Shown here: positions 20,337-64,000 of the stretch, in pieces
How the letters are laid out: the number at the start of each line of letters is the position of its first letter
Position numbering within the stretch: position 1 is the first letter of the stretch
Source of the DNA: Actinomycetota bacterium
Lineage (GTDB): Bacteria; Actinomycetota; AC-67
Assembly (NCBI GenBank): GCA_040905475.1
Contig: JBBDRM010000100.1
Coordinates: 26,383 to 90,382, forward strand
DNA length: 64,000 bases
Direction of reading: 5' to 3'
The notes under the pieces: model-generated
Databases searched by the model: none
Told to the model about the DNA's origin: nothing
What the model saw: only the letters and a program-made list of their open reading frames with translations
Translations under genes and position numbers: made by a program

Positions 20337-20337
20337 G

Positions 20338-43212: not shown

Positions 43213-44919
43213 CTACGGCTTCGTGCGGCGCAGCGACCTGATGCTCACACCCGCGAGGCTGAGGAGGCTCAGGGCGCCCACGTAGAAGGCTCCGCTGGTC
43301 CCAACACCCGTCTCGGGGAGGAACTTGGCCTTGAGCACGACCAGCACCTTGAGCGGAGGCGAGTTGCCCACGACCGTGCTGCCGTCGCCCTCACCGTCGC
43401 AGTTGCCGAGCACCGCGGCGGCGGTCGCGATGTCTTCGATGATGCCACCGCCGCCCTGCGCGCGAAGGGTCACGGACACGGTCTTGCTTCCGCCCTTCGC
43501 GATCGGACCGATGTTGTCCCATACCACGGTCCCCGAATCGAGATTCGATCCCGCGGGAACCTGGTTGGCTGTCGGGCTCGTGCTGAGCACCTGGAACTTC
43601 GCGTCACCTTCGGTCGTGATCTTGTCGACGACCTTGACGACCGTCATGTCGCAGCCGAAGGGGTTGTCGACCTTGATCGACGTGGTGAACGCCTGGCCGA
43701 CCGTGACGCCGTTCAGGTTCGAGGTCTTCGAGACCGGAATGCCGCAGTCGATGCCGCCCACCGGAACCTGCGCTGCGACCTCCATGTGACCGAAGCGGAG
43801 GTCCAGTGCCTCACCGTCGAGCACCTTGACGCGGACGACGTCCAGCGCCGCCGAGGCGCTGGTGCCGTTCGCCGCGACCGAAGGCTCGGTCGTGTCGTCG
43901 CCGCCGATCGCCCGCGGGTTCTCGCCGATGACGAGCTCGAGGACGCCGGGGATGATGATCGGGAGACCCTCGTCACCGAGGATGTCCTGGAACGTGATGA
44001 TGTCGGTGATCTCCCCGTCCTGGATGATGCGCAGGATCGGCGTCGAGGGGCTTGCCTCGCCGGGACCGAAGTGGATGTGCGAGCTGCCGGGGATGCCCCC
44101 GGCCGTCGCGCGCAGGACCCACTCACCGAGGAAATCGAGCGTCAGTGCGCCGTCCGCCAATGTCACCGGAGCGATCGTCATCCGTACCTCGGACGAGAGA
44201 CCGAACCTCAGACCGAGCGGGTTGCCGGCCGCGTTCTGCTGAACGTCGAGGAACGTGTGCGAGAACGACTGAGCGACCCGCCGGTCGGCCGGAAGCTCGG
44301 AGTTAACCGAGATCAGCGGCGCGTCCAGGTTGCCGTCGCCCTCGGGATCGGTCGTGCCCGTCTCGACAAGCTCGACGTTGGCCGCGTAGCCGAGGCCGTT
44401 GCTGAGGTCCTTGCCGAGCACGCAGGTGCTGGAGTTGCTCCAGTTCGCTTCCGCTGCGCCGCGGAGCAGCGAGGCGTACGCGATCGGCGAAGCGGGGAGG
44501 CCGAGAAGCTCGTCCATCGTCGAAGTGTTCGGCGGAGCAGCCGCTTCGGCGATCTGGATCTGGAGATCGTTCGCCGTGTCGTCGTCGACACCAAGCCCGA
44601 GCTCGAGGCCCGAGCCGCGGCCGGCCGTCTTCTTGGTCGGCTGCGCCGCGATCACGGTCCGGTCGAGGCCGGCTTCGTTCTTGATGGCGCTCGTCAACCC
44701 CTTCGAGTCGACGGCCGCGCCGGTCCAAGCCTCTTCCACGTTGGCGACGTTCACGCCGGTAGCGTGAAGCGCGTCTGCGTGGAGCACTTGACCGGTTGCG
44801 TAGCCGGAGAAATCCGCCTCATCGAACGGGACTGCCGATGCCGGGATCGCCACAACCGCGATAGCGAGTAGGGCGACCAGCAGGGCGGCTACCAACCGTC
44901 CGCTCCTGTGTACTGCCAT
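43213..44919 (-). CDS. Secreted cell-wall-anchored surface protein with a sortase sorting signal (LPETG + hydrophobic segment + RSLRRTKP) and a DUF11-like C-terminal repeat domain
   Basis: The signal peptide is MAVHRSGRLVAALLVALLAIAVVAIPASA. LPETG lies 35 aa from the C-terminus. A DUF11-like block (NGVTVGQAFTTSIKVDNPFG...GSKTVSVTLRA) is present. ATG at 44917-44919 follows GGGAGG. Confidence 0.7.
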   Translation of the reverse strand: MAVHRSGRLVAALLVALLAIAVVAIPASAVPFDEADFSGYATGQVLHADALHATGVNVANVEEAWTGAAVDSKGLTSAIKNEAGLDRTVIAAQPTKKTAGRGSGLELGLGVDDDTANDLQIQIAEAAAPPNTSTMDELLGLPASPIAYASLLRGAAEANWSNSSTCVLGKDLSNGLGYAANVELVETGTTDPEGDGNLDAPLISVNSELPADRRVAQSFSHTFLDVQQNAAGNPLGLRFGLSSEVRMTIAPVTLADGALTLDFLGEWVLRATAGGIPGSSHIHFGPGEASPSTPILRIIQDGEITDIITFQDILGDEGLPIIIPGVLELVIGENPRAIGGDDTTEPSVAANGTSASAALDVVRVKVLDGEALDLRFGHMEVAAQVPVGGIDCGIPVSKTSNLNGVTVGQAFTTSIKVDNPFGCDMTVVKVVDKITTEGDAKFQVLSTSPTANQVPAGSNLDSGTVVWDNIGPIAKGGSKTVSVTLRAQGGGGIIEDIATAAAVLGNCDGEGDGSTVVGNSPPLKVLVVLKAKFLPETGVGTSGAFYVGALSLLSLAGVSIRSLRRTKP

Positions 44920-45226
44920 CTGCTCCAACCTCCCTCGACGAACCAATCCGACCTTTGTTTCTACCCTCGCCGGAACCACACTAACTTCACTCAAGTTCCC
45001 AAAGCAGAGCCTTTCGCCGAAACCGCTCAGGACCCTGCTACTTACCTAATGCGAATGCATGAGGAAACTCTTACGCGACTGGTTTCCCCTCTTAACGACG
45101 TGACTCCTCTCAGTGGCCGTCAGGTTACCCGCTCTGGTTGCTTTTGAACCGGAACGTAACCATTGCGCGAACACGGTAGGTGATGGTAGGACTTCGCAGA
45201 TTTGGCCTGGGACGAAAAACCCGTCC

Positions 45227-46420
45227 TTATCGGCGCAGCGACCCGAACGGGACGTCCTTGTCGGGTGCGGAATCACGCGGCAGACCAAGCACTCGCTCTC
45301 CGATGAGGTTGCGCTGGATCTCGTCGGTCCCCCCGCCCAGCCGGAATGCCGGCCATCCCAGAAACGCCCGTTGGACTCCTTCTTCTCCCATAACGCTTCC
45401 ATCGGGCCCAAGGACACGCATACCCACCATCGCGGTCTGTCCAACGAGGTTCGCAAGGACGAGTTTCGCGATCGACCCTTCAGCGTCGGGGATCTGCCCG
45501 CGGCCGAGCTTCGAGAGGATCCGGGCGTTCAGCAGTGCAAGTATCCGACCCTGCGTGTAGACCCGGGCGAGCGCGTCCCGTGTTAGCGGATCGATCCCGT
45601 CCGGCGCCCGCTCCCGCGCCAGCTGCACGAGACGTTCGAAGGGGAACGTGTAGCCGCCGCTCGCACTGCCGATCGACATGCGTTCGTGCATGAGGGTAGT
45701 GATGGCGATCCGCCAGCCGTCGCCCGGCTCGCCCAGCCGGTCGGCGTGCGGCACGCGGACGTCGTTGAGGAAGACCTCGTTGAAGTGCGAGTTGCCGTCC
45801 ATCTGCTTGAGGGGGCGAACCTCGACGCCGGGCGACGACATGTCGACGATCAGATAGACGAGGCCCTTGTGCTTCGGCACGTCGAAGTCGTGCCGCGCAA
45901 GGAGCAGGCCGTAGTGCGCCTCGTGAGCGAGCGAGGACCAAACCTTTTGACCGTTGACGACCCACTCGTCGCCGTCACGGACCGCTCGTGTCGACAGCGA
46001 CGCGAGATCCGAGCCGGCACCGGGTTCGGAGAAGAGCTGGCACCAGATCTCGTCGCCGTTGAGCAGCGGCGGAAGGTACCGCGCTTTCTGCTCGGGCGAG
46101 CCGTGCGCGATGACGGTAGGCCCGGCCATCCCGAAGCCGACCACGTTGAACGGGATCGTCGCACCGATGCGAGCCTTCTCCTCGCCCCAGATGGTGGATT
46201 CGAGTGGGCCGAAGCCGCGCCCCCCGAACTCCGCCGGCCACGAGGGCGCACCCCATCCGGCTTGCGCAAGGCGGTGCTGCCATGCGCGCGACCGTGCCGG
46301 GTTCGGCACGCCGGTGTCGGGATGCTCGGCGTTGAACGCCGGCCAATTCTCCTCCAGCCAGGCGCGCGCCTCGGCGCGTACCGCTGCGAGATGCTCGGGC
46401 TCGTCGAAGCGCATCATCAC
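45227..46420 (-). CDS. Acyl-CoA dehydrogenase
   Basis: The ACAD N/M/C domains are present (LFSEPGAGSDLASLSTRAV...NGQKVW). It is the last gene of the long operon. Confidence 0.85.
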   Translation of the reverse strand: MMMRFDEPEHLAAVRAEARAWLEENWPAFNAEHPDTGVPNPARSRAWQHRLAQAGWGAPSWPAEFGGRGFGPLESTIWGEEKARIGATIPFNVVGFGMAGPTVIAHGSPEQKARYLPPLLNGDEIWCQLFSEPGAGSDLASLSTRAVRDGDEWVVNGQKVWSSLAHEAHYGLLLARHDFDVPKHKGLVYLIVDMSSPGVEVRPLKQMDGNSHFNEVFLNDVRVPHADRLGEPGDGWRIAITTLMHERMSIGSASGGYTFPFERLVQLARERAPDGIDPLTRDALARVYTQGRILALLNARILSKLGRGQIPDAEGSIAKLVLANLVGQTAMVGMRVLGPDGSVMGEEGVQRAFLGWPAFRLGGGTDEIQRNLIGERVLGLPRDSAPDKDVPFGSLRR

Positions 46421-47577
46421 TCCCTCGATAGAACGATCCCGCTCGTCGGCACGCCGACGCCGGCGGTGACGAGCACGTTGGACACGTCGGGCACTTGATT
46501 GGCCGCGGCGCCGCGGATCTGCCGAACGCCCTCGGCGACGCCGTTCATGCCGTGGATGTATCCCTCCCCCAGCTGGCCGCCGTTGGTGTTGATCGGAAGC
46601 CTGCCGCCCGGGCCGATGCCCGTGTCACGCACGAAGTCCTTCGACTCACCCGGGCCGCAGAAGCCGAACTCCTCGAGCTGCAAGAGCACGAACGGCGTGA
46701 AGGGGTCGTAGATGACCGCTGTCTGGATGTCGGCCGGCGTGAGGCCCGACTGCCGCCAGAGCTGCCGCGAGACGGCGGCTACCTCGGGGAGGTGGGTCAG
46801 GTCGTCGCGGTAATAGGACGTCATCTCCTCCTGGCCCGCGCCGGAGCCCTGCGCGGCTGCTCGGATGATCGCCGGGGTCTGGCGGAGGTCTTTCGCGCGC
46901 TCGGCGCTCGTGACGACCACGGCCACGCCGCCGTCGGATTCCTGACAGCAGTCGAGCAGGCGGAGCGGCTCGACGATCCAGCGGCTGGACTGATGATCCT
47001 CCAAGGTGATCGGCTTCCCGTGGAACCAGGCGTCCGGGTTCGTTGCCGCGAACGCGCGATGCGCGACGGCGACGCGCCCGAGGTCCTCGCTCGTCGCGCC
47101 GTAGGTGTGCATGTATCGCTGCGCGAACATCGCGACCCAGCTTGCCGGCGTCGTGAGGCCGAACGGCGTGTACCAGCTGTAGTGGATGAGCTCGGCCGTC
47201 GGCTTGTCGTGGATGCTCAAACCGAATCGGCGCCAGGAGCGGCCGTTCAGTGCCCGGTACGCGATCACGACTTCGGCCGAGCCGGTCGCGACGGCCATCG
47301 CCGCCTGGTGGATAACGGCGCATGCTGCTCCGCCGCCGTAATGGATCCGGCTGTAGAAGCTCAGGTCGCCGCACCCGAGGTTCCGGGCGAGCTCGATCTC
47401 TTCGTTCGAGTCCATCGTGAACGTGCAGAACCCGTCGACGTCGGCGGGGCTGAGCCCGGCGTCGGCGAGCGCGGCGGAGGCCGCCTCGACGGCGAGGCGC
47501 ATCTCGGTGCGGCCGGACTCCTTGGAGAACTCGGTCTGGCCGATCCCGGCGATCGCGGCGCGTCCGGCGAGGCTCAT
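46417..47577 (-). CDS. SCP-x/Ltp-type thiolase-like protein
   Basis: The sequence MSLAGRAAIAGIGQTEF is present on a thiolase fold. The track ORF is over-extended. The start overlaps the MaoC stop (ATGA). Confidence 0.8.
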   Translation of the reverse strand: MSLAGRAAIAGIGQTEFSKESGRTEMRLAVEAASAALADAGLSPADVDGFCTFTMDSNEEIELARNLGCGDLSFYSRIHYGGGAACAVIHQAAMAVATGSAEVVIAYRALNGRSWRRFGLSIHDKPTAELIHYSWYTPFGLTTPASWVAMFAQRYMHTYGATSEDLGRVAVAHRAFAATNPDAWFHGKPITLEDHQSSRWIVEPLRLLDCCQESDGGVAVVVTSAERAKDLRQTPAIIRAAAQGSGAGQEEMTSYYRDDLTHLPEVAAVSRQLWRQSGLTPADIQTAVIYDPFTPFVLLQLEEFGFCGPGESKDFVRDTGIGPGGRLPINTNGGQLGEGYIHGMNGVAEGVRQIRGAAANQVPDVSNVLVTAGVGVPTSGIVLSRE

Positions 47578-47996
47578 GCGCGGTCCTTGCCCGCCAGCGT
47601 GAGCCGGACGGTTCCGGAGACATGCTCCCCGAGGCCGGTCGTGCCGCGGATCGAGACCTCGACGTCGTCCCCTTCGACGAGCGTGACATGGCCGGCGAGG
47701 CGCATCACGTCGCCGGGGTAGTTCGGGGAGCCGAGCCGGATGGCGACCTTGCGCAGGATGGCCTCGGGTCCGGCCCAGTCCGTGACGAAGCGTCCGACCA
47801 ATCCGTTGGTCGTCAGGATGTTCATGAAGATGTCGCCGGCCCCGCGCTGCCGCGCCAGCGCGGCGTCGTGGTGGACGTCCTGGAAGTCTCGCGACGCGAG
47901 CGCGCCCGCCACGATGAGGGTCGCGGTGATCGGGATCTCGCTCGCGGGAAGCTCGTCGCCGACCGTCACGTCGCTCGGGCTGAGCGTGCGCATCAC
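47574..47996 (-). CDS. MaoC-like (R)-hydratase hotdog protein (ChsH1-like)
   Basis: The 140-aa hotdog protein carries DFQDVHHDAALARQ. Confidence 0.8.
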   Translation of the reverse strand: MMRTLSPSDVTVGDELPASEIPITATLIVAGALASRDFQDVHHDAALARQRGAGDIFMNILTTNGLVGRFVTDWAGPEAILRKVAIRLGSPNYPGDVMRLAGHVTLVEGDDVEVSIRGTTGLGEHVSGTVRLTLAGKDRA

Positions 47997-49117
47997 CGCT
48001 CCCCTCCCGAAGCCATCCCGGCACCGAGCCGCGCGAGCTGCCGGCCGGCGCCGCCGAGCATCAGCTCGACATGTTTCGCGCCGAGCGTGTAGCGATGCAA
48101 CGGGTACTCCATGTCGACGCCGATCCCGCCGTGAAGGTGCTGCGCGGCGGCGAGCACGCGGTGTCCGCCGTCGGCCGCCCAGAACTTGGCGATCGCGACC
48201 TCATCCGTCGCCGGCAGCCCCTCGTCGAGGCGCCACGCGGCTTGCCACATCGTCCACCGCATCGCCTCCACGTCGATGTAGGCGTCGGCGGCCCGCTGCT
48301 GGACCGCTTGGAACTTCGCGAGCGGCCGCCCGAACTGCTCGCGGCCGGACAGGTACTCGGCCGTCATGTGCAGCGCGCGCTCGGCCATGCCGACCTGAAG
48401 CGCGCAGAGGCCGGTGAGCGCCGCGTCGTGGAGCCACCCGAGAGCGGCGGGGTCGGTTCCCGGCTCGACCAGGACGTCGTCCTCGGGCACCGAGGCGCCG
48501 TCGAGGGTGAGCATCGACAGGATCTCGCCGCTGGTTGCGGACTGCCGCTCGAGGGTCAGTCCCCCCGAGCGCGGGTCGAGCAGGAAGATCCCGACGCCGC
48601 CGTTCGACCGCGCGGGGACGAGGACCCGCTCGGCGAGATGTGCGGCGGGCACAGCGATCTTCGCGCCTTCGAGTCGCCACGCGTCGCCCTCCCAGGTCGC
48701 GGTCGTCGCCGGCCGTAGCGGGTCATCTGAGTCGGGCTCGGCGAGTGCGGCGGTTAGGACGGCGTCCCCGGAGACAACACGCGGCAGCAGCGAGGATCGA
48801 AGCGACGGCGACCCGTAGCGGGTGATCGTTCGCGCGCCGAGGACGAGGGCGGGCCACAGCGGCACGGACGCCGCCGCCGCGCCGGCTTGCTCGAGCAGAA
48901 GGCAGACCTCGGTGAGGCCGCCGCCGATCCCGCCGTGGTCTTCGGAGATGCCGACGCCGAGGAGGTTCGCGCGGGCGAGCTCGGCCCAAAGTGATCGGTC
49001 GAAGCGATCGGGATCGGCCTCGACCTGCTTCAGCCGGTCGGTCGTCGTGTGCGCGCCGAGGATCTGACGCGCGAGGTCCCGCAGCGCCTCCTGGTCCTCG
49101 CTGAAACCCAGATCCAC
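47993..49117 (-). CDS. Acyl-CoA dehydrogenase
   Basis: The ACAD family protein lacks the usual FAD-binding Arg pattern and may be a heteromeric-type subunit. Confidence 0.8.
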   Translation of the reverse strand: MDLGFSEDQEALRDLARQILGAHTTTDRLKQVEADPDRFDRSLWAELARANLLGVGISEDHGGIGGGLTEVCLLLEQAGAAAASVPLWPALVLGARTITRYGSPSLRSSLLPRVVSGDAVLTAALAEPDSDDPLRPATTATWEGDAWRLEGAKIAVPAAHLAERVLVPARSNGGVGIFLLDPRSGGLTLERQSATSGEILSMLTLDGASVPEDDVLVEPGTDPAALGWLHDAALTGLCALQVGMAERALHMTAEYLSGREQFGRPLAKFQAVQQRAADAYIDVEAMRWTMWQAAWRLDEGLPATDEVAIAKFWAADGGHRVLAAAQHLHGGIGVDMEYPLHRYTLGAKHVELMLGGAGRQLARLGAGMASGGER

Positions 49118-49120
49118 GGC

Positions 49121-50080
49121 TCAGCTCCTTTGCTTGAAGACCGGCAACGTGACCGCGTCGTCGATGGTGAGGAAGTCCAGCTCGACCGGCATGCCGATGC
49201 GCACCTCGCCGGGCTCTACCCCGACGATGCTCGTGACGATCCGCGTCCCTTCCTCCAGGGCCACGAGCGCGACGACGTAGGGCATCTCGAACCCCGGCAC
49301 CGGCGGATGGTGCACCACGACGTACGAGAAGACCTCTCCTCGGCCGCTCGCCCGGACCGCATCCCATTCGAACGAGCCGCAGGCGCCGCACATCGTCCGC
49401 GGCGGATGCCGGAGGGTATTGCACGCGGAGCAGCGCTGGATCAGGAGCTCCCGTCGCGCCGTGCCGTCCCAGAAGAACCGGGTGTCCTGGTTCATCGCCG
49501 GCCGCGGGCGCCGCCCGGTTCGCGGCGGGACGGCCGCGGCCTCCGGCCGGAACTTCAGGTAGCGCTGCATCATGCGCCCGACGACTTCGCCGGTCGCGTC
49601 GCAGCAGGTCGTCAGCGTCGTGAAGAAGTGGCCGGGCCCAAGACCGGTGCGCTTCTCCTCCGAGACCGACTCGATGATCGTGGTCGACGTGATGAGGTCG
49701 CCCGGCCGCAGGTAGCGGAGGTACTCCTGCTCGCAGTTCGTCGCCACGATCGAGGTGAATCCGGCCTCGTCCAGAGCCGCGATCAGCTCCGCCTGCGCGT
49801 TGTCGGGCGACGGCGGAGGCTTGAGACCTTTCATCGTCCAAACCTGCAGCATCGTCGGAGGCGCGACGATGCTGCCGTGGACCGACCATTTCGCGAACGT
49901 GGGATCGGTGTAGGAAGGATTGGCGTCACCGAGCGCCTCGCACCAATGGCGGATCATCGACTCGTTCACCGGGTCCGGCGAGGTGAACTGCGGCCCGGCC
50001 CGCCGCCCGACGAAGGACCGCAGCCGCTCGACGAGATCCTCGCGCTCGGACTCGGTGCGGCGGTCCGCGGTCTTGCTCAC
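49121..50080 (-). CDS. MaoC-like hotdog fused to a DUF35 OB-fold/Zn-ribbon domain (ChsH2-like)
   Basis: The N-terminal hotdog is followed by the C-terminal Zn ribbon CSACNTLRHPPRTMCGACGS and an OB fold. Confidence 0.7.
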   Translation of the reverse strand: MSKTADRRTESEREDLVERLRSFVGRRAGPQFTSPDPVNESMIRHWCEALGDANPSYTDPTFAKWSVHGSIVAPPTMLQVWTMKGLKPPPSPDNAQAELIAALDEAGFTSIVATNCEQEYLRYLRPGDLITSTTIIESVSEEKRTGLGPGHFFTTLTTCCDATGEVVGRMMQRYLKFRPEAAAVPPRTGRRPRPAMNQDTRFFWDGTARRELLIQRCSACNTLRHPPRTMCGACGSFEWDAVRASGRGEVFSYVVVHHPPVPGFEMPYVVALVALEEGTRIVTSIVGVEPGEVRIGMPVELDFLTIDDAVTLPVFKQRS

Positions 50081-51258
50081 CGGCCGCTCCTCGGCATCCC
50101 GAGCCCGGCGGTCGCGATGATGTCGCGCTGGACCTCGTTGACGCCGCCGCCGAACGTAACGACGTATGCCCAGCGGTACATGATCTCGACGCGGCCGCCC
50201 AGCACCGCGCCCGGAGAACCGTGACGGATCTCGCCCGCTTCGCCCAGGACCTCCATGAGGCTGCGATAGACCTCGACGAACAGCTCTGTGCCGTAGACCT
50301 TGACGACCGACGCGTCGGCCGCGTTAAGGATCCCTTTCGTCAGCTCCCAGGCGAGACGCCAGTTCAGCAGCTTCAAGGCCTCGAGCCGAGCGCGCGTTCG
50401 GGCGAGCGTCATCTGCACCCAGGGGCGGTCGATGATGCGGCCGCCGTCGGACGCGGTGGTCTGGGCCGCCCACGCGAGCACGTCGTCGAGGAGCTGCTCG
50501 GCCTTGCCCGAGCATGCCAGCGCGACGCGCTCGTGGTTGAGCTGCGTGGTGATGAGCCCCCACCCCTCGTTCTCGCCGCCGACGATCGCGTCGGCCGTGG
50601 CGCGCACGTCCTCGAAATAGACGGCGTTCGTCCGCCCGTAGTCGATGGTCTCGATCGGGGTCATCTTCACTCCGTCGTGTGACGTCGGGACGATGAAGAT
50701 CGTGAGGCCCTTGTGCTTCGGAGCCTCTGTGTCGGTGCGCGCGGCGAGCCATATGTAGTCCGAGTCGTGCGCGCCCGTCGTGAAGATCTTCTGGCCGTTG
50801 ATCACGTAGCCGGTGCCGTCCTTGACCGCGCGGGTACGGAGCGACGCAAGGTCGGTTCCCGCGCCCGGCTCCGTGTAGCCGATCGCGAAATGCATCTCAC
50901 CGCGAAGGATCGGCCGGAGGAAGCGCTGCTTCTGCTCCTCGGTGCCGTACTGGATCAGCGTGGGGCCGACGGTGTTTAGGGTTACGAACGGGAACGGCAT
51001 GTCGGCGCGGCGGCACTCGTCGATGAAGAGCTGGTGCTCGATGAACGAGCGACCTTGCCCTCCGTACTCCTTCGGCCATCCGAGGCCGAGCCAGCCGTCC
51101 TCCCCCATCTGCCGGACGACGCGGCGGTAGGCGGGCCCCATCTGCTCGCCGGCGCGCGGGCCCAGCTCCGCGCGAAGCTCCGGCGTCAGGACCTTCGCGA
51201 AGTACGCACGGAGCTCGTCGCGCAGCGCGATCTGCTCGTCGGAATAGGCGACGCGCAC
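50077..51258 (-). CDS. Acyl-CoA dehydrogenase
   Basis: The sequence IGYTEPGAGTDLASLRTRAV...NGQKIFTT is present. Confidence 0.85.
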   Translation of the reverse strand: MRVAYSDEQIALRDELRAYFAKVLTPELRAELGPRAGEQMGPAYRRVVRQMGEDGWLGLGWPKEYGGQGRSFIEHQLFIDECRRADMPFPFVTLNTVGPTLIQYGTEEQKQRFLRPILRGEMHFAIGYTEPGAGTDLASLRTRAVKDGTGYVINGQKIFTTGAHDSDYIWLAARTDTEAPKHKGLTIFIVPTSHDGVKMTPIETIDYGRTNAVYFEDVRATADAIVGGENEGWGLITTQLNHERVALACSGKAEQLLDDVLAWAAQTTASDGGRIIDRPWVQMTLARTRARLEALKLLNWRLAWELTKGILNAADASVVKVYGTELFVEVYRSLMEVLGEAGEIRHGSPGAVLGGRVEIMYRWAYVVTFGGGVNEVQRDIIATAGLGMPRSGR

Positions 51259-51264
51259 GTCCGG

Positions 51265-52044
51265 CTACCCAAATCGGGGCACGTGTCCGCCCCACCCCAC
51301 GAAGGACGTCGCGCCGCCGTCGACGACGAACTCGGCGCCGGTGCAGTAAGAGCTTTCGTCGGACGCGAGGAACAAGACCATGTTCACGATGTCGTCGGGG
51401 ACCCCTGCGCGACGGAGCGGGATACCCGACTCGAACAGCTTGTCGACGTCGATGTCTTGCAGGCCCTGCGCGCGGGTCATCGGCGTATCGATGAAGCCCG
51501 GGTGGACGGAATTGACGCGGATCTTGTGCCGGCCGAGCTCCACCGCGGCGGACTTGCTCATCCCGCGGACGGCGAACTTGCTGGCCGTGTATGCGGTGAG
51601 ACGCGGAAGGCCGCGCAATCCCTCGACCGAGGAGATGTTGATGATCGAGCCGCCGCCGGCGCGCTTCATGGCCGGCACGGCCGCCTTCATGCCGAGGAAC
51701 ACGCCGACCTGGTTCACGTTGATGATCTGCATGTAGTCCTCGAGGGTCGAGTCCTCGAGCTTGCCGAACTTGAGGATGCCGGCGTTGTTGAGCAGGACGT
51801 CGAGGCGGCCGAACGACTGCTCGGCGTCCTTGACGGCCGAAACCCAGTCGTCCTCCTTCGTAACGTCGAGATGGGTGTAGATCGCGGCGTTGCCCAGCTC
51901 CTGGGCGAGCGCCTTGCCCTCGTCGTCGAGGATGTCCCCGAGCGCGACCCGGGCACCCTCGGCGACGAACCGGCGAGCAGCGGTGGCGCCCTGGCCACGC
52001 GAGCCACCGGAGATCAGCGCGACCTTGCCGTCGAGCCGTCCCAC
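51265..52044 (-). CDS. SDR-family oxidoreductase (3-hydroxyacyl-CoA / hydroxysteroid dehydrogenase-like)
   Basis: The sequence GKVALISGGSRGQG ... NNAG ... YTASK is present. Confidence 0.85.
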   Translation of the reverse strand: MGRLDGKVALISGGSRGQGATAARRFVAEGARVALGDILDDEGKALAQELGNAAIYTHLDVTKEDDWVSAVKDAEQSFGRLDVLLNNAGILKFGKLEDSTLEDYMQIINVNQVGVFLGMKAAVPAMKRAGGGSIINISSVEGLRGLPRLTAYTASKFAVRGMSKSAAVELGRHKIRVNSVHPGFIDTPMTRAQGLQDIDVDKLFESGIPLRRAGVPDDIVNMVLFLASDESSYCTGAEFVVDGGATSFVGWGGHVPRFG

Positions 52045-52055
52045 AGCTTGTCCTT

Positions 52056-53162
52056 TCAGATCCCGAGCCGGGTTGCCAGCAGCTCCCGATGGTAGACGGG
52101 GTCGCCGAACAGCAGTTCGGAGGACTTCGCACGCTTGAAGTACAGATGCGCGTCGTGCTCCCAGGTGAATCCGATGCCGCCGTGGACCTGGATGTTCTCC
52201 GAGGCGGCGAAGAAGTAGGCGTCCGAGGCGACCGCCTTGGCGAGCGGCGCGCTCAGACGGAGCTCGTCGTCATCCTTGGCCGCGACCCACATCGCGTAGT
52301 AGGCGGCGGTCTTCGCCGACTCGATCTGGAGGAGCATGTCGGCGCACTTGTGCTTGATCGCCTGGAATTGGCCGATGGGGCGACCGAACTGAACCCGGTT
52401 CTTCGCGTAGTCGACGGCCATGTCGAGGCAGCGCTGCGCGCCGCCGACGATCTCGGCCGCGATGCAGACGGAGATGTGGTCGAGCAGCTTGTCGAGCGAC
52501 GCGGGGATGTCCCCAAGCGCGGTTCCGCGCACGTTCTGGAGCTCCAGGCTGGCCTGCTTCCGGGTCTGGTCGAGTGTCGGCAGCGCCTCGCGGGTCAGCC
52601 CGCCCGCGTCGCCGGGGACGACGAACAGGCCGACGCCCTCGGGCGCCCTGGCGGCGACGATCAGCAGGGAAGCGATCCCGCCGTCGACCACGAAGCGTTT
52701 CGTGCCGTTCAGGATCCAGTCGGAGCCTTCTTTGCGCGCGGTCGAGGAGACGCCGGTCGCGTCCCAACGGCCGTTGGGCTCGGCGAACGCGAGCGCGGCG
52801 ATCGTCTCGCCGGACGCGATACCGGGCAGCAACTCCTTGCGTTGCGCGTCGGAGCCGAGATCGAGGATCGCGTTGCCGGCCAGGCACACGCTCGACAGGA
52901 ACGGCGCGGCGAGCAGCGACCGGCCCATCTCCTCGAGCACGATCCCGAGCTCGACGAACGAGAAGCCCTGTCCCCCGTACTCCTCGGGGATGTGGAGGCC
53001 CTGCAGGCCGAGCTCGGCGGCCATCTGCTTCCAGACAGACTCGTCGTAACCGCCGGGCGTCTCCATGAGGCGGCGGACTTCGGTCGTCGGCGACTTGTCC
53101 TCGAGGAAGCGCCGCATCGTTCGGCGAAGCTCTTCCTGCTCGTCGGTGAAGGTGAAATTCAT
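52056..53162 (-). CDS. Acyl-CoA dehydrogenase
   Basis: The start MNFTFTDEQEELRR is at 53160-53162. The ACAD fold is present. Confidence 0.85.
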   Translation of the reverse strand: MNFTFTDEQEELRRTMRRFLEDKSPTTEVRRLMETPGGYDESVWKQMAAELGLQGLHIPEEYGGQGFSFVELGIVLEEMGRSLLAAPFLSSVCLAGNAILDLGSDAQRKELLPGIASGETIAALAFAEPNGRWDATGVSSTARKEGSDWILNGTKRFVVDGGIASLLIVAARAPEGVGLFVVPGDAGGLTREALPTLDQTRKQASLELQNVRGTALGDIPASLDKLLDHISVCIAAEIVGGAQRCLDMAVDYAKNRVQFGRPIGQFQAIKHKCADMLLQIESAKTAAYYAMWVAAKDDDELRLSAPLAKAVASDAYFFAASENIQVHGGIGFTWEHDAHLYFKRAKSSELLFGDPVYHRELLATRLGI

Positions 53163-53166
53163 ATGG

Positions 53167-54321
53167 TTACGGCCTTTCGCTCGAGACCATCCACATCGCG
53201 AAGAACTGCGAGCCACCACCGTACGCGTGACCGAGGGCGAGGCGCGCGCCGTCCACCTGATGCTCGCCGGCCTGGCCGCGGACCTGCATCGCAGCTTCGG
53301 CGAAGCGGAGCATGCCGGACGCGCCGATCGGGTTCGACGAGAGCACGCCGCCGGACGGGTTGATCGGCAGGTCGCCGTCCAGAGCGGTCACGCCCTTGTC
53401 GGTGAGCTGCCACCCGGTCCCTTCATCGGCGAAGCCGAGGTTCTCGAGCCACATCGGTTCGAACCACGAGAACGGAACGTAGACCTCGGCGAGGTCGATC
53501 TGGCCGCGAGGGTCGGTGATCCCGGCCTGCGCGTAGACGTCGGCGGCGCAATCCCGGCCGGCGCGCGGGTTGACCTCGTCTCGCCCGGCCATCCCGAGCG
53601 GCTCGCTGCGCACGGCCGTCCCGCGCACCCAGGCCGCCGGGTTCTTGCCGGTGGCCGCGTACCGCTCGCTGGTGAGCACCATCGCGCATGCGCCGTCCGA
53701 GGACGGGCAGCACTCGAGGAAGCGGATCGGATCCCATAGCATCGGCGACTCGGCGACCTTCTCGAACGAGATGTCGGGGATCCGGAGGTGCGCGTAGGGG
53801 TTGCGCATGCCGTTCACGCGGTCCTTGACGGCGACCTCGATCCCGATGTGGTCGGGGGCCTTCGCACGGCGGATGTACTCGCGGATGTGCGGCGCGAAGT
53901 AGCCGCCGGCTCCGGCGACGAGCGTCGGCTGGAACGGGATCTTCGGCGCGAGGGCCCACATCGCGTTGGACTCGGACTGCTTCTCGAACGCGACCGTGAG
54001 GACCCGCTCGTAGAGACCCGACGCGACGTGGTGCGCGGCAACGACCGCGGTCGACCCGCCGACGCTGCCGGCCGTGTGGACGCGGAGCAGCGGCTTTCCG
54101 ACGGCGCCGAGCGCGTCGGCCAGGTAGAGCTCGGGCATCATGACGCCCTCGAACATGTCCGGCGCCTTTCCGACGACGACCGCGTCGATGTCGGACCAGC
54201 CCATGTTGGCGTCGTCGAGCGCGCGGGTGGCAGCCTCGCGCACGAGCCCGGCGATCGAAAGGTCCTCGCGCGCGGTGTCGTGCTTCGTCTGGCCGATCCC
54301 GACGATCGCGGTGCGCTCCAT
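53167..54321 (-). CDS. Thiolase-like protein (SCP-x/Ltp type; active-site Cys position appears occupied by Ser/Thr)
   Basis: The sequence MERTAIVGIGQTKHD...RVHTAGSVGGSTAVV is present. The track ORF is over-extended. Confidence 0.75.
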   Translation of the reverse strand: MERTAIVGIGQTKHDTAREDLSIAGLVREAATRALDDANMGWSDIDAVVVGKAPDMFEGVMMPELYLADALGAVGKPLLRVHTAGSVGGSTAVVAAHHVASGLYERVLTVAFEKQSESNAMWALAPKIPFQPTLVAGAGGYFAPHIREYIRRAKAPDHIGIEVAVKDRVNGMRNPYAHLRIPDISFEKVAESPMLWDPIRFLECCPSSDGACAMVLTSERYAATGKNPAAWVRGTAVRSEPLGMAGRDEVNPRAGRDCAADVYAQAGITDPRGQIDLAEVYVPFSWFEPMWLENLGFADEGTGWQLTDKGVTALDGDLPINPSGGVLSSNPIGASGMLRFAEAAMQVRGQAGEHQVDGARLALGHAYGGGSQFFAMWMVSSERP

Positions 54322-54323
54322 CG

Positions 54324-55385
54324 CTACTCGCCCTCCAGGACGCAGATCAGATTTTGCTGCAGGCACGGGCCGGAGGTCGCGTGAGCGAGCGCGCGGTTCG
54401 CTTCGCCGTTCGAGATCCGCGTCGCCGCCTCGCCGATCCGGATCAGCCCGGCGGCCATGATCGGGTTCGCCGCGAGCGCGCCGCCGGAGGGGTTGATCTT
54501 GGTTCCGTTCGGCTTCGCGAGCCCGAGCGCGTCGCGCAGGATCAGCTCTTGGTGGGTGAACGGCGCGTAGAGCTCGGCGACGTCGATCTCTCCTTCGAGC
54601 GCGCCGGCCACCTCCGCGGCCTTGCGGGTCGAGGGGGAGCGGGTCAGGTCGCGCACGCCCGGATAATGCGGCTCGATGCGGTGGTCGATGCCGCGGATCC
54701 ACGCGGGTCGATTCGAGACCTTCCGCGCCAGGTCCCCCGCGGCGAGCACGACCGCCGCGGCTCCGTCTGAGATCGGCGCGCAGTCGTGTTTGCGGAGCGG
54801 CGACACGATGTAGGGATCGGCCAGGATCTGCTCGGCGTCGAAGTCGCCGGTCACTTGCGCGTTCGGGTTGGCCTTCGCGTCGCGGCGGCTACGCGCGGCC
54901 ACCTCGGCCATCTCTCGCTCGGTGTGGTCGGTCGACTCGAGCAGCGCGCGGGCCTGCAGCGCGGCGAGCGAGATCGCGTCGGGCCAGAGCGGCGCGAGGT
55001 AGTACGGGTCGAGCTGTCGGGTCAACACGTCGCGCACCTGCCCCGGGGAGGACTTTCCGAAGCCGTAGACGAGCGCGGAGTCGATCACGCCTTCTTGCAA
55101 TAGCACCCACGCCTCGTACAGCGCCCACGCGCCGTCGGCCTCCACGTGTGACTCGCGGACGGGCGGCCAGGCGCCGATCGCCTCGAGGCCGTACACGAAC
55201 GCGAACGGCTGACCGGCGAGGTAGTCGGCCGAGCCCGAGCACGTGAAGCCGATCTCCTTCGATGGGATCCCCGAGTCGGCGACGGCTTTCTGGATCACCG
55301 GCATCAAGATCTCGACCTCGTTCTGGACGGCGTTGTTCCGCACGCTCGTCGATTGCGCGAAGGACACCACGGCGACGTCACGCAT
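54324..55385 (-). CDS. Thiolase-like protein
   Basis: The sequence MRDVAVVSFAQ...FTCSGSADYLAG is present on a thiolase fold. Confidence 0.75.
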   Translation of the reverse strand: MRDVAVVSFAQSTSVRNNAVQNEVEILMPVIQKAVADSGIPSKEIGFTCSGSADYLAGQPFAFVYGLEAIGAWPPVRESHVEADGAWALYEAWVLLQEGVIDSALVYGFGKSSPGQVRDVLTRQLDPYYLAPLWPDAISLAALQARALLESTDHTEREMAEVAARSRRDAKANPNAQVTGDFDAEQILADPYIVSPLRKHDCAPISDGAAAVVLAAGDLARKVSNRPAWIRGIDHRIEPHYPGVRDLTRSPSTRKAAEVAGALEGEIDVAELYAPFTHQELILRDALGLAKPNGTKINPSGGALAANPIMAAGLIRIGEAATRISNGEANRALAHATSGPCLQQNLICVLEGE

Positions 55386-55881
55386 CGGCGCGCATCCTCT
55401 TCAGCACGTCGTCGATCGGCGCGTCGGGCTCTCCGGTCGGGCGCCAGTAGCGGATCGAGTCCCCCGTCGGTCCCCGTTCGGCGTCGGGCACCCAGACCGC
55501 CTCGACGCGCATCCCCATGCGGACGTCGGCCGCCTGGACCTCCTGCAGCAAGGCCGTCAGCGGGATGTCGGCGCCGTCGAGCAGGATGGCGGCGGTCGTG
55601 TAGGGGATCTCGACGGTCGAGCCGGCGAACGGCACGTTGACGACGCAGAAGGTCGTGACGGTCCCGACGTGCGGGAGCTCCACGACTTCGGTCATCGGGA
55701 TGCCGTCGCGCGGGCACGCCCCGCTGCCGCCGCCCACGTACACCTTGTGGCAGCGCTCGCAGCGCTCGCCGAGGATGCGGCCCTCCGCGAGGCCGTTCAA
55801 GAATCGCGACCGCGCGACGCCGGGGGTGTAGTTGTACTCGAGCCGGATCGGCGTCTGGATGATCTCGACCGGATCGGACAT
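55378..55881 (-). CDS. DUF35 OB-fold/Zn-ribbon protein (thiolase partner)
   Basis: The sequence MSDPVEIIQTPIRLEYNYTPG...CERCHKVYVGGGSGAC is present. The start overlaps the stop of the next gene (ATGA). Confidence 0.7.
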   Translation of the reverse strand: MSDPVEIIQTPIRLEYNYTPGVARSRFLNGLAEGRILGERCERCHKVYVGGGSGACPRDGIPMTEVVELPHVGTVTTFCVVNVPFAGSTVEIPYTTAAILLDGADIPLTALLQEVQAADVRMGMRVEAVWVPDAERGPTGDSIRYWRPTGEPDAPIDDVLKRMRADA

Positions 55882-56336
55882 CACGCCTCCGGCTCGAAGC
55901 ATTCGATGTCGAGGATGTGGCCGGTGCGCTCCTCGCGCCAGCGCGGTTTCACGCGCATCCCGGTCGTCATCTTCGTCTCGTCGCCGGCGTCCACCGCGTG
56001 CAACAGCGCCGTGTCGGCGCCGTCGAGGCGGATCAGCGCCCACGCGAACGCCTTCTGCAACGGATTGTTGGGGCGCGGCTCGGCGATCCAGGCCCACGTC
56101 GTCACGACGCCGGACGGGCCGACCGCCACGAACTCACTGAGCTCGGCGGCGGTCTGCGGGTCGTACTCGACCGGCGGGACGATCACGCGGCCGTCGCTCC
56201 CGCGGATGCCCTCGAGCTTCTTGTCGCGCAGGCCGGTCAGGAACCGACCGATCACCCGGCCGACGCTTCGCTTGTACGGATACTCGAGGACGTGGAGCGC
56301 CGTGAGGACCTTGGTGTCGCCCGCCCCCGCTCTCAT
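55881..56336 (-). CDS. DUF35-like OB-fold protein (no Zn ribbon)
   Basis: The 151-aa protein resembles the C-terminal OB part of DUF35 proteins. Confidence 0.55.
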   Translation of the reverse strand: MRAGAGDTKVLTALHVLEYPYKRSVGRVIGRFLTGLRDKKLEGIRGSDGRVIVPPVEYDPQTAAELSEFVAVGPSGVVTTWAWIAEPRPNNPLQKAFAWALIRLDGADTALLHAVDAGDETKMTTGMRVKPRWREERTGHILDIECFEPEA

Positions 56337-56339
56337 GGC

Positions 56340-57893
56340 TCAGATCGCCCGTTCGCGTCCGGCCCAGTACGGGTCGCGCAGCTTGCGCTTGTAGAGCTTG
56401 CCGTTGGGATCGCGCGGAATCTCGGCGATGAAGTCGATCGTGCGCGGGATCTTGTACTTCGCGAGACGGTCGGAGAGGAACGCGGTCAGCTCTTGCTCGA
56501 GCGCCGGGCCCGGCTCGATGCCGGCCGACGGCTCGACGACGGCCTTGACCTCCTCGCCCCAGTCGTCGTGCGGGATGCCGAACACGGCGGCATCGCCGAC
56601 CTTGGGGTGCTGGTGCAGCGTTCCCTCGATCTCGGCGGGATAGATGTTGACGCCGCCCGAGATGATCATGTCGATCTTGCGGTCCATCAGGAACAGGTAG
56701 CCGTCCTCGTCGAGGTAGCCGATGTCCCCGACGGTGAAGAAGCCCTCATTCCAGGTCTTGTCGGTCTTCGCCTTGTCCTTGTGGTACTCGAAGGTGTAGT
56801 CGCCCATCTTCATCCACACGGTGCCTGGCGTCCCCGCCGGGACGGGCTTGTTGTCGTCGTCGAGCACCGAGACCTGCGAGATCGGCCACGGCTTCCCGAC
56901 CGTGCCGGGCTTCTTCAGCCACTCCTCCGGCGTGACGAGCGTGCCGCCGCCCTCGGTGGCGGCGTAGTACTCGTAGATCACCGGGCCCCACCAGTCGAGC
57001 ATCCTGCGCTTGGTCTCGATCGGGCACGGCGCGGCCGAGTGGATCATGTAGCGCAGCGAGCCGAGATCGCGGGTGTCCTTCGCGTCGTTCGGGAGCGCGA
57101 GCAGACGGTGGAACTGCGTGGGAACCATGTGCGAGCTCGTCACCTTGTAACGCTCGATGCGCTCGAGCGTGCCCTCGGGGGTCCACTTGTCCATCAGCAC
57201 GACGTTGTGACCCATGTGCAGGGAGCTCGACGCGAAACGCAGCACGGCCGTGTGGTACAGCGGCGAGACGACGAGGTGGGTGTTGTTGTCTTTCGGCTGG
57301 ATGCCGAACAGCATCAGGAACAAGCCGTTCAGCTCGGCGTTGGTGTCGGGGTCGAAAGGGCTCCCCGGACGGCGAACGCCCTTTGGGCTGCCGGTCGTTC
57401 CGGCGGTGTAGTTCATGATGTCGCCGGTCGCCCGGTCCTCGGGCATGGCGTCCGGCCGGCCGGCCTTCACGTCGGCGTAAGGACGAAAGCCTTCGATGTC
57501 TCCGGCGACCGCGAAGCGCGCGTCCGTCGGGAAGCTCGCCTCCTCGGCCGCGGCGTGCGCGGCGTCGGCGTATCGCGCTTCGGAGATGAAGGCTTTGGCC
57601 TCGGAGTCCTCGAGGATGTACGCGATCTCCGGCGCCGTGAGGTGGTAGTTGATCGGCACGAGGTACCAGCCCGCCTGCATGACGGCGAGGTAGGCCTCGA
57701 CCGCGGCGATCGAGTTCGGGAGCAGGATCGCGACGGTGTCGCCCTTGTTCAGGCCGAGCGCACGCAGCCCGTGAACGAGGCGGTTCGTCTCGGCGAGCAG
57801 CTCGCCGGCCGTGACCTCGACCCCCTCGGGATCGACGAGCGCCAAGCGCGAAGGATCGGCCTGCGCGAGGTTCCAGAACCCGAGTTCGCCCAC
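56340..57893 (-). CDS. Acyl-CoA synthetase (AMP-binding, FadD family)
   Basis: The sequences TAGTTGSPKGV, GDIGYLDEDGYLFLMDRKIDMI and YPAEIE are present. The start is either GTG at 57893 (preferred, because it places the operator upstream) or GTG at 57953. Confidence 0.8.
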   Translation of the reverse strand: MGELGFWNLAQADPSRLALVDPEGVEVTAGELLAETNRLVHGLRALGLNKGDTVAILLPNSIAAVEAYLAVMQAGWYLVPINYHLTAPEIAYILEDSEAKAFISEARYADAAHAAAEEASFPTDARFAVAGDIEGFRPYADVKAGRPDAMPEDRATGDIMNYTAGTTGSPKGVRRPGSPFDPDTNAELNGLFLMLFGIQPKDNNTHLVVSPLYHTAVLRFASSSLHMGHNVVLMDKWTPEGTLERIERYKVTSSHMVPTQFHRLLALPNDAKDTRDLGSLRYMIHSAAPCPIETKRRMLDWWGPVIYEYYAATEGGGTLVTPEEWLKKPGTVGKPWPISQVSVLDDDNKPVPAGTPGTVWMKMGDYTFEYHKDKAKTDKTWNEGFFTVGDIGYLDEDGYLFLMDRKIDMIISGGVNIYPAEIEGTLHQHPKVGDAAVFGIPHDDWGEEVKAVVEPSAGIEPGPALEQELTAFLSDRLAKYKIPRTIDFIAEIPRDPNGKLYKRKLRDPYWAGRERAI

Positions 57894-57902: not shown

Positions 57903-57919
57903 ATTAGAACACGTTCTCG
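57903..57919 (-). promoter_or_regulatory. KstR-type TetR operator-like site (sense of fadD: GAGAACGTGTTCTAATT)
   Basis: It matches the TnnAACnnGTTnnA consensus and is identical to the 17-mer at 60468-60484. It lies about 10 nt upstream of the preferred fadD start. Confidence 0.5.
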
Positions 57920-60467: not shown

Positions 60468-60484
60468 GAGAACGTGTTCTAATT
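60468..60484 (+). promoter_or_regulatory. KstR-type TetR operator-like site GAGAACGTGTTCTAATT in the permease/ADH divergent region
   Basis: It is about 35 nt upstream of the ADH ATG and an inverted copy of the 57903-57919 site. Confidence 0.5.
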
Positions 60485-63732: not shown

Positions 63733-64000
63733 CCGCGCTCTGGGGTGAACTTCACCGGCATGTGCTTGATGCCGTTCACGAAGTTCGACGCGAGGCGCTG
63801 CACCGGGCCGGCGAGCGCCATGTCGGGCAAACGGGCGAGCAGCTCCTCGAACATGATCTTGATCTCGACCTCGGCCAGCGAGAAGCCGAGACAGAAGTGC
63901 GCACCGCCCCCGCCGAACGTCACGTGCTCGCCGGGATTGCGGCCGACGTCGAAGCGGTGCGGGTCGGGGAACGCCTCCGGGTCGCGGTTCGCCGCCACGT
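63729..64000 (-). CDS. Cytochrome P450, C-terminal part; near-identical paralog of the downstream P450, and the gene runs off the window
   Basis: FGGGGAHFCLGFSLAEVEIKIMFEELLARLPDMA is about 85% identical to the neighbour over 90 aa. The stop overlaps the start of the next P450 (ATGA). Confidence 0.85.
   Translation of the reverse strand, partial: VAANRDPEAFPDPHRFDVGRNPGEHVTFGGGGAHFCLGFSLAEVEIKIMFEELLARLPDMALAGPVQRLASNFVNGIKHMPVKFTPERG

Follow-up and report, generated by a model that had tools for sequence, protein, structure and literature searches.

Which substrate is served by an operon whose genes bear the generic names of fatty acid degradation and whose order recalls the steroid side-chain operons of Mycobacteriales? 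The question is raised by a stretch of 64,000 nucleotides (nt), hereafter the window, from an uncultured Actinomycetota bacterium (GenBank assembly GCA_040905475.1, contig JBBDRM010000100.1, positions 26,383 to 90,382), in which 13 minus-strand open reading frames (ORFs), all co-directional, occupy positions 45227-57893. An earlier note on this DNA had described them as a tightly packed operon resembling the igr module of Mycobacterium tuberculosis, with extra thiolase-DUF35 pairs. We propose that they belong to a locus for sterol side-chain catabolism under KstR-type regulation in an uncultured actinobacterium, with two known modules fused in one operon, and we hold this to be quite probable. 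The steroid link is independently supported, because KstR-type operators and CYP125-like cytochrome P450 genes accompany the operon. The type of system is already known; its compact arrangement is unusual, and the host is uncultured.

Organization of the operon

The 13 genes (g01 to g13 in order of transcription) are separated by 3, -1, -8, 2, 4, 11, 6, -4, 3, -4, -4 and -4 nt, spacings of -8 to +11 nt that agree with the tight packing reported before. Pfam searches return, in this order, an AMP-binding ligase, two OB_ChsH2_C (DUF35) proteins, two thiolase-like proteins, an acyl-CoA dehydrogenase (ACAD), a short-chain dehydrogenase/reductase (SDR), an ACAD, the fusion protein g09, an ACAD, a MaoC protein, a thiolase-like protein and an ACAD, and thereby agree with every domain call of the earlier note. 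The operon is real and conserved, because its gene order recurs in related loci. The arrangement is not due to chance: the identical 13-gene order is present in two independent contigs, L002 (metagenome-assembled genome [MAG] GCA_975200925.1) and L085 (a JGI contig). A third locus, L087, has the same order through ltp2, is without the last ACAD gene, and contains two PhdYeFM/PIN toxin-antitoxin pairs inserted inside the operon (6852-7480 and 13236-13899); each of its operon fragments has its own AGAACNNGTTCT box on the 5' side (5217, 9044 and 13920).

A predicted module for removal of the last propionyl unit

Likeness to steroid enzymes of solved structure is concentrated in g08 to g12. The predicted Ltp2-type retro-aldolase g12 (46417-47577) matches Ltp2 of Thermomonospora curvata (6ok1_A) with E = 1e-163, scores 668 bits on the NCBIfam model PRK07855 (cut-off 469), and is 67% identical to the Nocardia farcinica Ltp2 orthologue (tblastn). 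The catalytic residues of the T. curvata enzyme are Tyr294, within a YDHF motif, and Tyr344 (PMC12329534). Y290 and Y340 of g12 align to these two residues, which are kept in 11 of the 11 orthologues examined. The g12 motif reads YDPF, with Pro at His296, and this third position varies among H, A and P in the orthologues. In an alignment with SCP2-type thiolases, g12 is without the nucleophilic Cys.

The hydratase and the scaffold of the aldolase have equally recognizable counterparts. The ChsH2-type protein g09 (49121-50080) combines a hotdog domain, a Cys4 zinc ribbon and a DUF35 OB fold (Pfam FAS1_DH_region, zf-ChsH2 and OB_ChsH2_C in one protein). Its C-terminal part matches the ChsH2 DUF35 domain that shares a crystal with T. 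curvata Ltp2 (6ok1_B, 6e-50), and its N-terminal part matches the MaoC domain of M. tuberculosis ChsH2 (4wnb_A, 3e-33). The ChsH1-type MaoC hydratase subunit g11 (47574-47996) matches ChsH1 (4wnb_B, 1e-31) and conserves the hydratase stretch RDFQDVHHD, with a Pfam MaoC_dehydratas score of 26.7 bits, slightly below the cut-off of 27. Both proteins are 48-51% identical to N. farcinica ChsH2 and ChsH1.

The four ACADs of the operon comprise two alpha-type (g08, g13) and two beta-type (g06, g10) subunits. The alpha-type, putatively catalytic subunit g08 (50077-51258) has the motifs EPGAGTD and NHER and matches 6wy8_B (Tcur3483) at 4e-132 and 4x28_A at 3e-130, and the beta-type g10 (47993-49117) matches 6wy8_A (Tcur3481) at 1e-86 and 4x28_D at 6e-64. 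According to a review, the T. curvata enzyme is an ACAD of alpha2beta2 form with a preference for C3 side chains (PMC8399759); no paper naming Tcur3481 was found in our literature search. The 6wy8 match, together with the adjacency of both types in eight loci, suggests that g08 and g10 are the two halves of one steroid alpha2beta2 ACAD. In N. farcinica, the genes directly 5' of chsH2-chsH1-ltp2 are closest to g10 (35% identity) and g08 (53%), the latter being the ACAD immediately before chsH2.

As judged by these homologies, g08-g12 is a complete predicted igr/cas-type set for removal of the last propionyl unit. The likeness to ChsH1, ChsH2 and Ltp2 seen by the earlier note is thus borne out by strong matches to solved steroid enzymes (6ok1, 4wnb, 6wy8 and 4x28), and the best matches are to these steroid enzymes rather than to the ordinary beta-oxidation enzymes that would have spoken against it. 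The description of the module as permuted holds relative to M. tuberculosis only. The interleaved order ACAD-ChsH2-ACAD-ChsH1-Ltp2 also occurs in loci L014, L049 and L057, and it fits the order L-M-N-O-P of the cas nomenclature, where dehydrogenase, hydratase and aldolase are CasLN, CasOM and CasP, respectively.

The second alpha-type subunit, g13 (45227-46420), identified by its Pfam ACAD domains and by the motifs EPGAGSD and MHER (with the Glu in xHER), matches 6wy8_B far more weakly than g08 does (4e-53 against 4e-132). The beta-type g06 (52056-53162), called on the same grounds and predicted to be the non-catalytic subunit of a heteromeric ACAD, has a degenerate EPxAGxD and no Glu at the HER position of the alpha type. 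We propose that g13 and g06 are partners, as suggested by their adjacency in N. farcinica, L020 and L036. In the N. farcinica locus (L089, 3090-10155), a KstR box is followed by ACADs of the g06-type beta, g13-type alpha, g10-type beta and g08-type alpha kinds and then by chsH2-chsH1-ltp2; because of this arrangement, the third ACAD type of the window is linked to igr-like genes in a Mycobacteriales genome as well.

The Ltp3/Ltp4/DUF35 module

The remaining genes, g01-g07 with g13, appear to form a second module, the identity of which is proposed from orthology, synteny and residue conservation. Its core is a four-gene cassette. Two stand-alone DUF35 OB-fold proteins (both Pfam OB_ChsH2_C), g02 (55881-56336), which lacks the zinc-ribbon Cys, and g03 (55378-55881), with a partial zinc ribbon (CxxC...C), are followed by two thiolase-fold proteins, g04 (54324-55385) and g05 (53167-54321). 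On NCBIfam models, g04 scores 550 bits for PRK07937 (cut-off 419) and g05 scores 690 bits for PRK08313 (cut-off 514); neither has a close solved structure. We take these models to represent Ltp4 and Ltp3, respectively, in view of synteny and of the M. tuberculosis proteins.

The synteny comes from Tsukamurella tyrosinosolvens, where a crotonase (enoyl-CoA hydratase, ECH), a ligase and one 309-residue OB-fold protein are followed by two thiolase-domain proteins, with an F420-dependent oxidoreductase, a nitronate monooxygenase and a P450 in the vicinity. The first and second halves of the fused OB-fold protein are 50% and 49% identical to g02 and g03, respectively, and the thiolase-domain pair is 56% and 68% identical to g04 and g05; moreover, zf-ChsH2 is called in the g03 orthologues of L004 and L086. 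Because the Tsukamurella layout equals the M. tuberculosis list fadD19, echA19, cyp142, Rv3520c, Rv3521, ltp4 and ltp3 (PMC6429209), which falls within Rv3515c-Rv3523, g02-g05 correspond to the Rv3521/Ltp4/Ltp3 set, and two genes here take the place of Rv3521. The extra thiolase-DUF35 pairs of the earlier note are therefore present, though as this known set, recognized by the PRK models and by the Tsukamurella synteny, and not as an unexplained expansion. Ltp3-Ltp4 has been described as a heteromeric aldol-lyase that cleaves the C24-C25 bond of C24-branched sterols (PMC6678751; PMC10832528), a role that comes from Rhodococcus rhodochrous mutants only, in which the genes were needed for growth on sitosterol or campesterol and not on cholesterol.

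The alignment agrees with an aldolytic rather than a thiolytic function. In g05, the loop expected to hold the nucleophilic Cys reads TAGSVGGS (Cys replaced by Ser/Gly), with YVPF for HDCF and SNP for GHP, as had been suspected for this ORF. The loss extends to all three thiolase-like proteins: g04 has EADGAWA at the Cys loop, YAPF for HDCF and ANP for GHP, and the thiolase Cys, the HDCF/NEAF loop and the GHP His are missing in g04, g05 and g12 alike. In conservation profiles drawn from 73-82 orthologues, 151 of 384 positions of the Ltp3 type are at least 97% invariant, including E.YVPFSW, so that the equivalent of Tyr294 is invariant. Conservation is lower in the Ltp4 type (87 of 353 positions), where the Tyr of YAPF is not kept among 82 orthologues. 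Ltp3 (g05) is probably the catalytic aldolase subunit and Ltp4 (g04) its non-catalytic partner. By analogy, the two different DUF35 proteins may flank an Ltp3-Ltp4 heterodimer in the way that ChsH2-DUF35 flanks Ltp2.

Two further enzymes adjoin the cassette in the operon. The acyl-CoA ligase g01 (56340-57893; Pfam AMP-binding and AMP-binding_C) is FadD4-like, with 498 bits on the FadD4 model, below the cut-off, and 217 bits on the CasG model (cut-off 750); it is 29% identical to the ligase at the FadD19 position of Tsukamurella. The classical FabG-like SDR g07 (51265-52044; Pfam adh_short_C2) is 62.5% identical to a Tsukamurella SDR that adjoins hsd4A-like and fadE26-like genes, and it is a candidate hydroxyacyl-CoA or steroid hydroxyl dehydrogenase.

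The family names alone (AMP-binding ligase, ACADs, SDR and 'thiolase') would fit ordinary beta-oxidation of fatty acids or branched-chain amino acids. That explanation is extremely improbable: the catalytic residues of the thiolase-fold proteins are missing in three of three, on which ground we reject it; moreover, the ACADs are of alpha/beta heteromer types, the operon has no crotonase and no HADH/FadB-type enzyme, and steroid enzymes are the best matches.

KstR-type operators and cytochromes P450

Two palindromes of the KstR operator type lie upstream of the operon. The first (57906-57917) is 12 nt 5' of the GTG start of fadD (g01), and the second, AGAACGTGTTCT (60469-60480), is 37 nt 5' of the start of a zinc-dependent alcohol dehydrogenase (Zn-ADH) gene, in a divergent promoter region. 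They were found by reading the fadD leader and then relaxing the outer bases of the pattern. On the operon strand, the 75-nt leader reads GAGAACGTGTTCTAATTTCGCCGAC-GTG, and its TAATTT may be the -10 box of a leaderless transcript. The start at 57893 gives a ligase of 517 residues, equal in length to the L002 and L085 orthologues; an alternative start further upstream, at 57953, would place the operator within the coding region. Scans for consensus promoters and terminators at the operon ends gave nothing useful, and Rfam and tRNA scans of the window gave no matches.

The exact sequence AGAACNNGTTCT occurs twice in the window, where 0.02 occurrences are expected by chance, and the 57906-57917 sequence recurs at equal spacing before fadD in L002 and L085. 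Across the window and the related and comparison loci (1.59 Mb), we found 67 exact sites against 0.32 expected, an enrichment of about 200-fold; where a match to a window protein lies nearby, the sites are mostly 24-170 nt 5' of ligase, cassette, ACAD, P450 or ADH genes. The cross-locus consensus (T/G)AGAACGTGTTCTA equals the KstR operator TnnAACnnGTTnnA. The strict KstR 14-mer TNNAACNNGTTNNA has no match in the window, and both window sites begin with G and not with T. The study that defined the KstR motif reports a site before Rv3521 in M. tuberculosis and places ltp2, ltp3, ltp4 and fadE26-29 in the regulon (PMC1995591). No TetR gene is present in the 64 kb of the window. The TetR genes beside the cassette in L012 and L072 have KstR as their best NCBIfam model, at 137 and 157 bits (cut-off 280), and in L012 an operator lies just 5' of the KstR-like TetR gene. 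A TetR/KstR-like repressor encoded elsewhere probably binds both AGAACNNGTTCT operators.

Beyond the second operator lie two P450 genes on the minus strand. The complete one (62539-63732; Pfam p450) matches CYP125MRCA at 1.7e-154, CYP124 at 4e-101, CYP125 at 1e-93 and CYP142 at 3e-76, and it likely encodes the terminal (C26) oxidase of the side chain. The other is cut by the window end, leaving its 3' end (63729-64000; the C-terminal 89 residues, with the heme motif FGGGGAHFCLG). This C-terminus is nearly identical to that of its neighbour, and its stop codon overlaps the neighbour's start (ATGA), so that the two genes are tandem paralogues. P450 genes of this type also lie upstream of the operon in L002, L085 and L087, the last two having one only.

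These genes bear on whether the substrate could be a bile acid. A cholate-type operon like cas of Rhodococcus jostii or that of T. curvata would receive an already carboxylated substrate and process only C5 and C3 side chains; the ACAD-ChsH2-ACAD-ChsH1-Ltp2 order fits CasL-M-N-O-P, and T. curvata, described as a degrader of bile acids, supplies the best structural matches. Carboxylated bile acids, however, need no terminal hydroxylase, and two CYP125/124-type genes adjoin the operon. Moreover, the operon holds the Ltp3/Ltp4 set, which is tied genetically to C24-branched sterols, its ligase reaches only 217 of the 750 bits required by the CasG model, and its operators match those of KstR, the repressor of the cholesterol regulon. 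We consider a bile-acid operon quite unlikely and retain a sterol with an alkyl side chain as the substrate.

Distribution of the cassette and alternative substrates

Relatives of g04 were found in at least 586 genomes in a scan of species-representative genomes, and a protein search returned at least 8000 candidate clusters, all with E<=1e-20, of which the best 120 listed are 71-93% identical. For neighbourhood counts, 80 species loci were kept, 75 of them untruncated, and the order DUF35-DUF35-Ltp4-Ltp3 was found in every one of the 75. Among the 80 loci, the cassette is accompanied by a g01-type ligase in 31, a g13-type ACAD in 18 (where it adjoins both the ligase and the cassette), a g07-type SDR in 14 (directly after ltp3), a Zn-ADH in 12, the g08 and g10 types in 10 each, a P450 in eight and Ltp2 in five. 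Its hosts are mostly Acidimicrobiales and unclassified Actinomycetota MAGs, and include Streptomyces, Aquihabitans, Chloroflexota and Myxococcota. Unbiased clustering of the ORFs of 85 related loci was noisy, owing to antisense ORFs and high GC, and served only to flag neighbours that were then checked with Pfam and NCBIfam. One of these is a crotonase beside the P450 of L085, which exceeds the cut-off of PRK07799 and reaches 370 of the 400 bits required for EchA19. Another is a KshA-like oxygenase (Rieske and KshA_C domains) found with the cassette in 14 loci and often encoded immediately 3' of ltp3 (examples are L042 12249-13358, L052 12273-13238 and L025 15356-16405); its best NCBIfam match is a weak one, to 4beta-methylsterol monooxygenase at 57 bits.

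Several points weigh against a sterol side-chain locus as we propose it. The 64-kb window is without a ring-degradation gene, a FadA5-type Cys-thiolase, an Hsd4A-type dehydrogenase, a KstR gene or an ECH hydratase; because these are missing and the rest of the window is mostly housekeeping-like on reading the translations, most of which were not scored against family models, a complete pathway cannot be shown. The carboxylase needed by the published C24-branch scheme was seen neither in the Pfam-annotated loci nor in the window. The ligase g01 belongs to neither the FadD19 nor the FadD17 nor the CasG type, and the cassette is also present in genomes of Streptomyces, Chloroflexota and Myxococcota, which are not known steroid degraders. 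In the literature searched, we found no biochemical or structural study of any Ltp3/Ltp4 protein with its DUF35 partner. Finally, the Comamonas gene that follows ltp2 is ChsE2, which would suggest a pairing of g10 with g13.

Some of these points would also suit a methyl-branched or alicyclic lipid that is not a steroid, such as an isoprenoid acid or the side chain of a hopanoid or terpenoid, degraded by the same retro-aldol chemistry on tertiary beta-hydroxyacyl-CoAs. The window has no ring-degradation genes, the ligase is FadD4-like, and the spread of the cassette (at least 586 species genomes and at least 8000 protein clusters) includes taxa not known for steroid use; the second-best match of the P450, CYP124, is an omega-hydroxylase of methyl-branched lipids. 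Such a substrate is nevertheless unlikely in view of the closeness of g12 to Ltp2 of N. farcinica (67%) and T. curvata (1e-163), the 48-51% identity of g09 and g11, the conserved Ltp2 catalytic residues, the KstR-type operators, and the KstR-like, EchA19-like and KshA-like genes that lie beside the cassette in relatives.

A broader reading is possible, though we find it doubtful. The cassette would be a self-contained hetero-oligomeric retro-aldolase for beta-branched acyl-CoAs that form tertiary alcohols, in use from Actinomycetota to Chloroflexota and Myxococcota; the sterol side-chain pathway of this lineage would be largely thiolase-independent and aldolytic, and the KstR-type operator would be conserved far outside Mycobacteriales. 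The FadD4-like ligase, the class-III-like Zn-ADH, the FabG-like SDR and the third alpha/beta ACAD type would then be the recurrent partners of the cassette.

Other surroundings of the cassette deserve mention. A sulfatase gene lies immediately 5' of it in 11 loci labelled Acidimicrobiaceae or Acidimicrobiales (L011, L017, L024, L030, L033, L034, L039, L060, L067 and L082, at about 7300-9300, and L043, at 202-2436), and one might guess at sterol sulfates as substrates there. In L086 (GCA_040960315.1), three molybdopterin oxidoreductase genes of about 920 codons flank the cassette (632-6439 and 19876-21056) and could encode enzymes like steroid C25 dehydrogenase; the other neighbours are a true thiolase, an Hsd4A-like SDR, an ECH, a TetR gene and a P450. 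Exact KstR-type boxes beside the cassette in L018 (8925), L032 (15583) and L079 (5738), loci labelled as MAGs of Deltaproteobacteria, Polyangiaceae and Proteobacteria, may be due to mis-binning or to a regulon that has spread horizontally.

With regard to the host itself, the Ffh protein of the window shares 96% identity with its closest metagenomic match and more than 80% with many other metagenomic proteins; named relatives are at about 75% or less and nearly all are labelled 'Actinomycetota bacterium'. At least two relatives carry ffh and an Ltp4 homologue on what the data suggest is one contig, as in the window, and the operon has the look of a trait stably kept in the chromosome of this uncultured lineage. 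Origin as a horizontal island was considered and is unsupported: G+C is about 68% throughout the window, the composition of the operon equals that of its flanks, and in relatives the operon and ffh apparently share a contig.

Proposed pathway

It seems that the locus could act on a sterol side chain in two stages. Firstly, the CYP125-like P450s would oxidize the terminal methyl group, probably to a carboxyl group, g01 would form the CoA ester, and g13 with g06 would desaturate it to the enoyl-CoA. Hydration may fall to ChsH1/ChsH2 or to a hydratase encoded outside the operon (EchA19-like in relatives), and Ltp3-Ltp4 with g02 and g03 would cleave the tertiary, non-oxidizable beta-hydroxyacyl-CoA, at the C24-C25 bond in the genetic model of R. 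rhodochrous. Secondly, the alpha2beta2 ACAD of g08 and g10 would introduce the 17(20) double bond into the final isopropionyl (C20-C22) unit, the hydratase of g11 and the N-terminal hotdog domain of g09 would add water to give the tertiary C17 alcohol, and g12, held by the DUF35 domain of g09, would release the 17-ketosteroid and propionyl-CoA by retro-aldol cleavage. The steps of this second stage are assigned from closely homologous enzymes whose structures are solved and whose activity on steroids has been measured. Both promoters would be under the control of a KstR-like repressor.

Neighbouring genes

Between the two operators, on the operon strand, lies an FtsX/MacB-type permease gene (57969-60362, about 800 codons, start codon inferred; Pfam FtsX and MacB_PCD) with no adjoining ATPase gene. 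It has no NCBIfam match and no counterpart at this position in L002, L085 or L087, and it is possibly a transporter with shared regulation, or else an insertion. Divergent from the operon side, on the plus strand, is the Zn-ADH gene (60518-61597; Pfam ADH_N and ADH_zinc_N), the product of which is class III or NDMA-dependent-like (347 bits on TIGR03989, below the cut-off) and has orthologues of 57-84% identity adjoining the cassette in 12 of the 80 species loci and in L002, L085 and L087. An SDR oxidoreductase gene (61602-62438, plus strand; Pfam adh_short_C2 and adh_short) follows 4 nt 3' of it in the same direction, with the coniferyl-alcohol dehydrogenase subfamily as its nearest NCBIfam model, below the cut-off.

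Directly 3' of the operon, the minus strand encodes a large surface protein with an LPETG sortase signal at its end (43213-44994), and L002 and L085 have a similar large gene after the operon. Elsewhere in the window, a cofC-like gene for F420 biosynthesis precedes one for a luciferase-like oxidoreductase (38209-40006, plus strand); an F420-dependent oxidoreductase adjoins Rv3521 in M. tuberculosis and its counterpart in Tsukamurella. Tandem signal peptidase I paralogues (2149-3060 and 3664-4458) and an HU-like protein with a Lys/Ala-rich tail (41104-41529) are encoded on the minus strand. The surface protein, the peptidases and the HU-like protein were recognized from their translations only.

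Significance and comparison with known systems

By these findings, a deep-branching lineage of uncultured actinobacteria has a compact sterol side-chain locus, apparently under KstR control. Of the by-products, the most valuable is the view of the Ltp3/Ltp4/double-DUF35 cassette as a tightly conserved unit. It is widespread and accompanied by KstR-type operators, so that more environmental bacteria may be suspected of degrading sterols or phytosterols, and its four genes offer a clean minimal target for the first biochemistry of an Ltp3-Ltp4 aldol-lyase.

The M. tuberculosis igr operon (fadE28-fadE29-chsH2-chsH1-ltp2, with cyp125 upstream) shares with the window the same five functions, a nearby CYP125-type P450 and a KstR-type operator. 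It differs in that here the five genes are interleaved and lie inside a longer operon, Ltp2 carries YDPF in place of YDHF, and the host is a deep-branching actinobacterium that is uncultured. The closest relatives with structures are casL-casP of R. jostii RHA1 and the T. curvata genes (Tcur3481/Tcur3483, 6wy8; Ltp2-ChsH2DUF35, 6ok1), and the cas gene names imply an interleaved order like that of the window. These systems are assigned to bile acids, whereas the P450s, the Ltp3/Ltp4 set and the KstR boxes added here point to sterols with alkyl side chains.

With Rv3521-ltp4-ltp3 of M. tuberculosis, and with ltp3/ltp4 of R. rhodochrous, the cassette shares its families and the order DUF35, Ltp4, Ltp3, and a KstR box heads the operon that contains the set in both cases, before Rv3521 in M. 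tuberculosis and before fadD here. In contrast, the double-DUF35 protein is split into two genes here, the common form outside Mycobacteriales, the ligase is FadD4-like and not FadD19-like, and one operon holds both the set and the igr-type module. With the KstR regulon of Mycobacteriales, the window shares the operator core AGAAC-NN-GTTCT and its T/A flanks, and the window site GAGAACGTGTTCTAATTT is almost the same as that of Rv0940c, ATTAGAACGTGTTCTAATTT; unlike that regulon, the window has no KstR gene, and the TetR proteins of relatives (137-157 bits) lie below the equivalog cut-off of 280.

Thiolase-fold dimers flanked by DUF35 proteins are known from Sal-Shy, Atf1-ChsH4, BbsAB, the archaeal thiolase/HMGCS/DUF35 complex and PhlACB, and g05 and g04 match chains of these complexes at 1e-14 to 1e-40. 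The cassette differs from them in that two different thiolase-fold subunits would be paired with two different DUF35 proteins. Canonical degradative thiolases (FadA5/SCP2-thiolase) have the Cys, the HDCF/NEAF loop and the GHP His that g04, g05 and g12 lack. Among the P450s, the window enzyme appears closest to the clade of CYP125, the steroid C26-monooxygenase.

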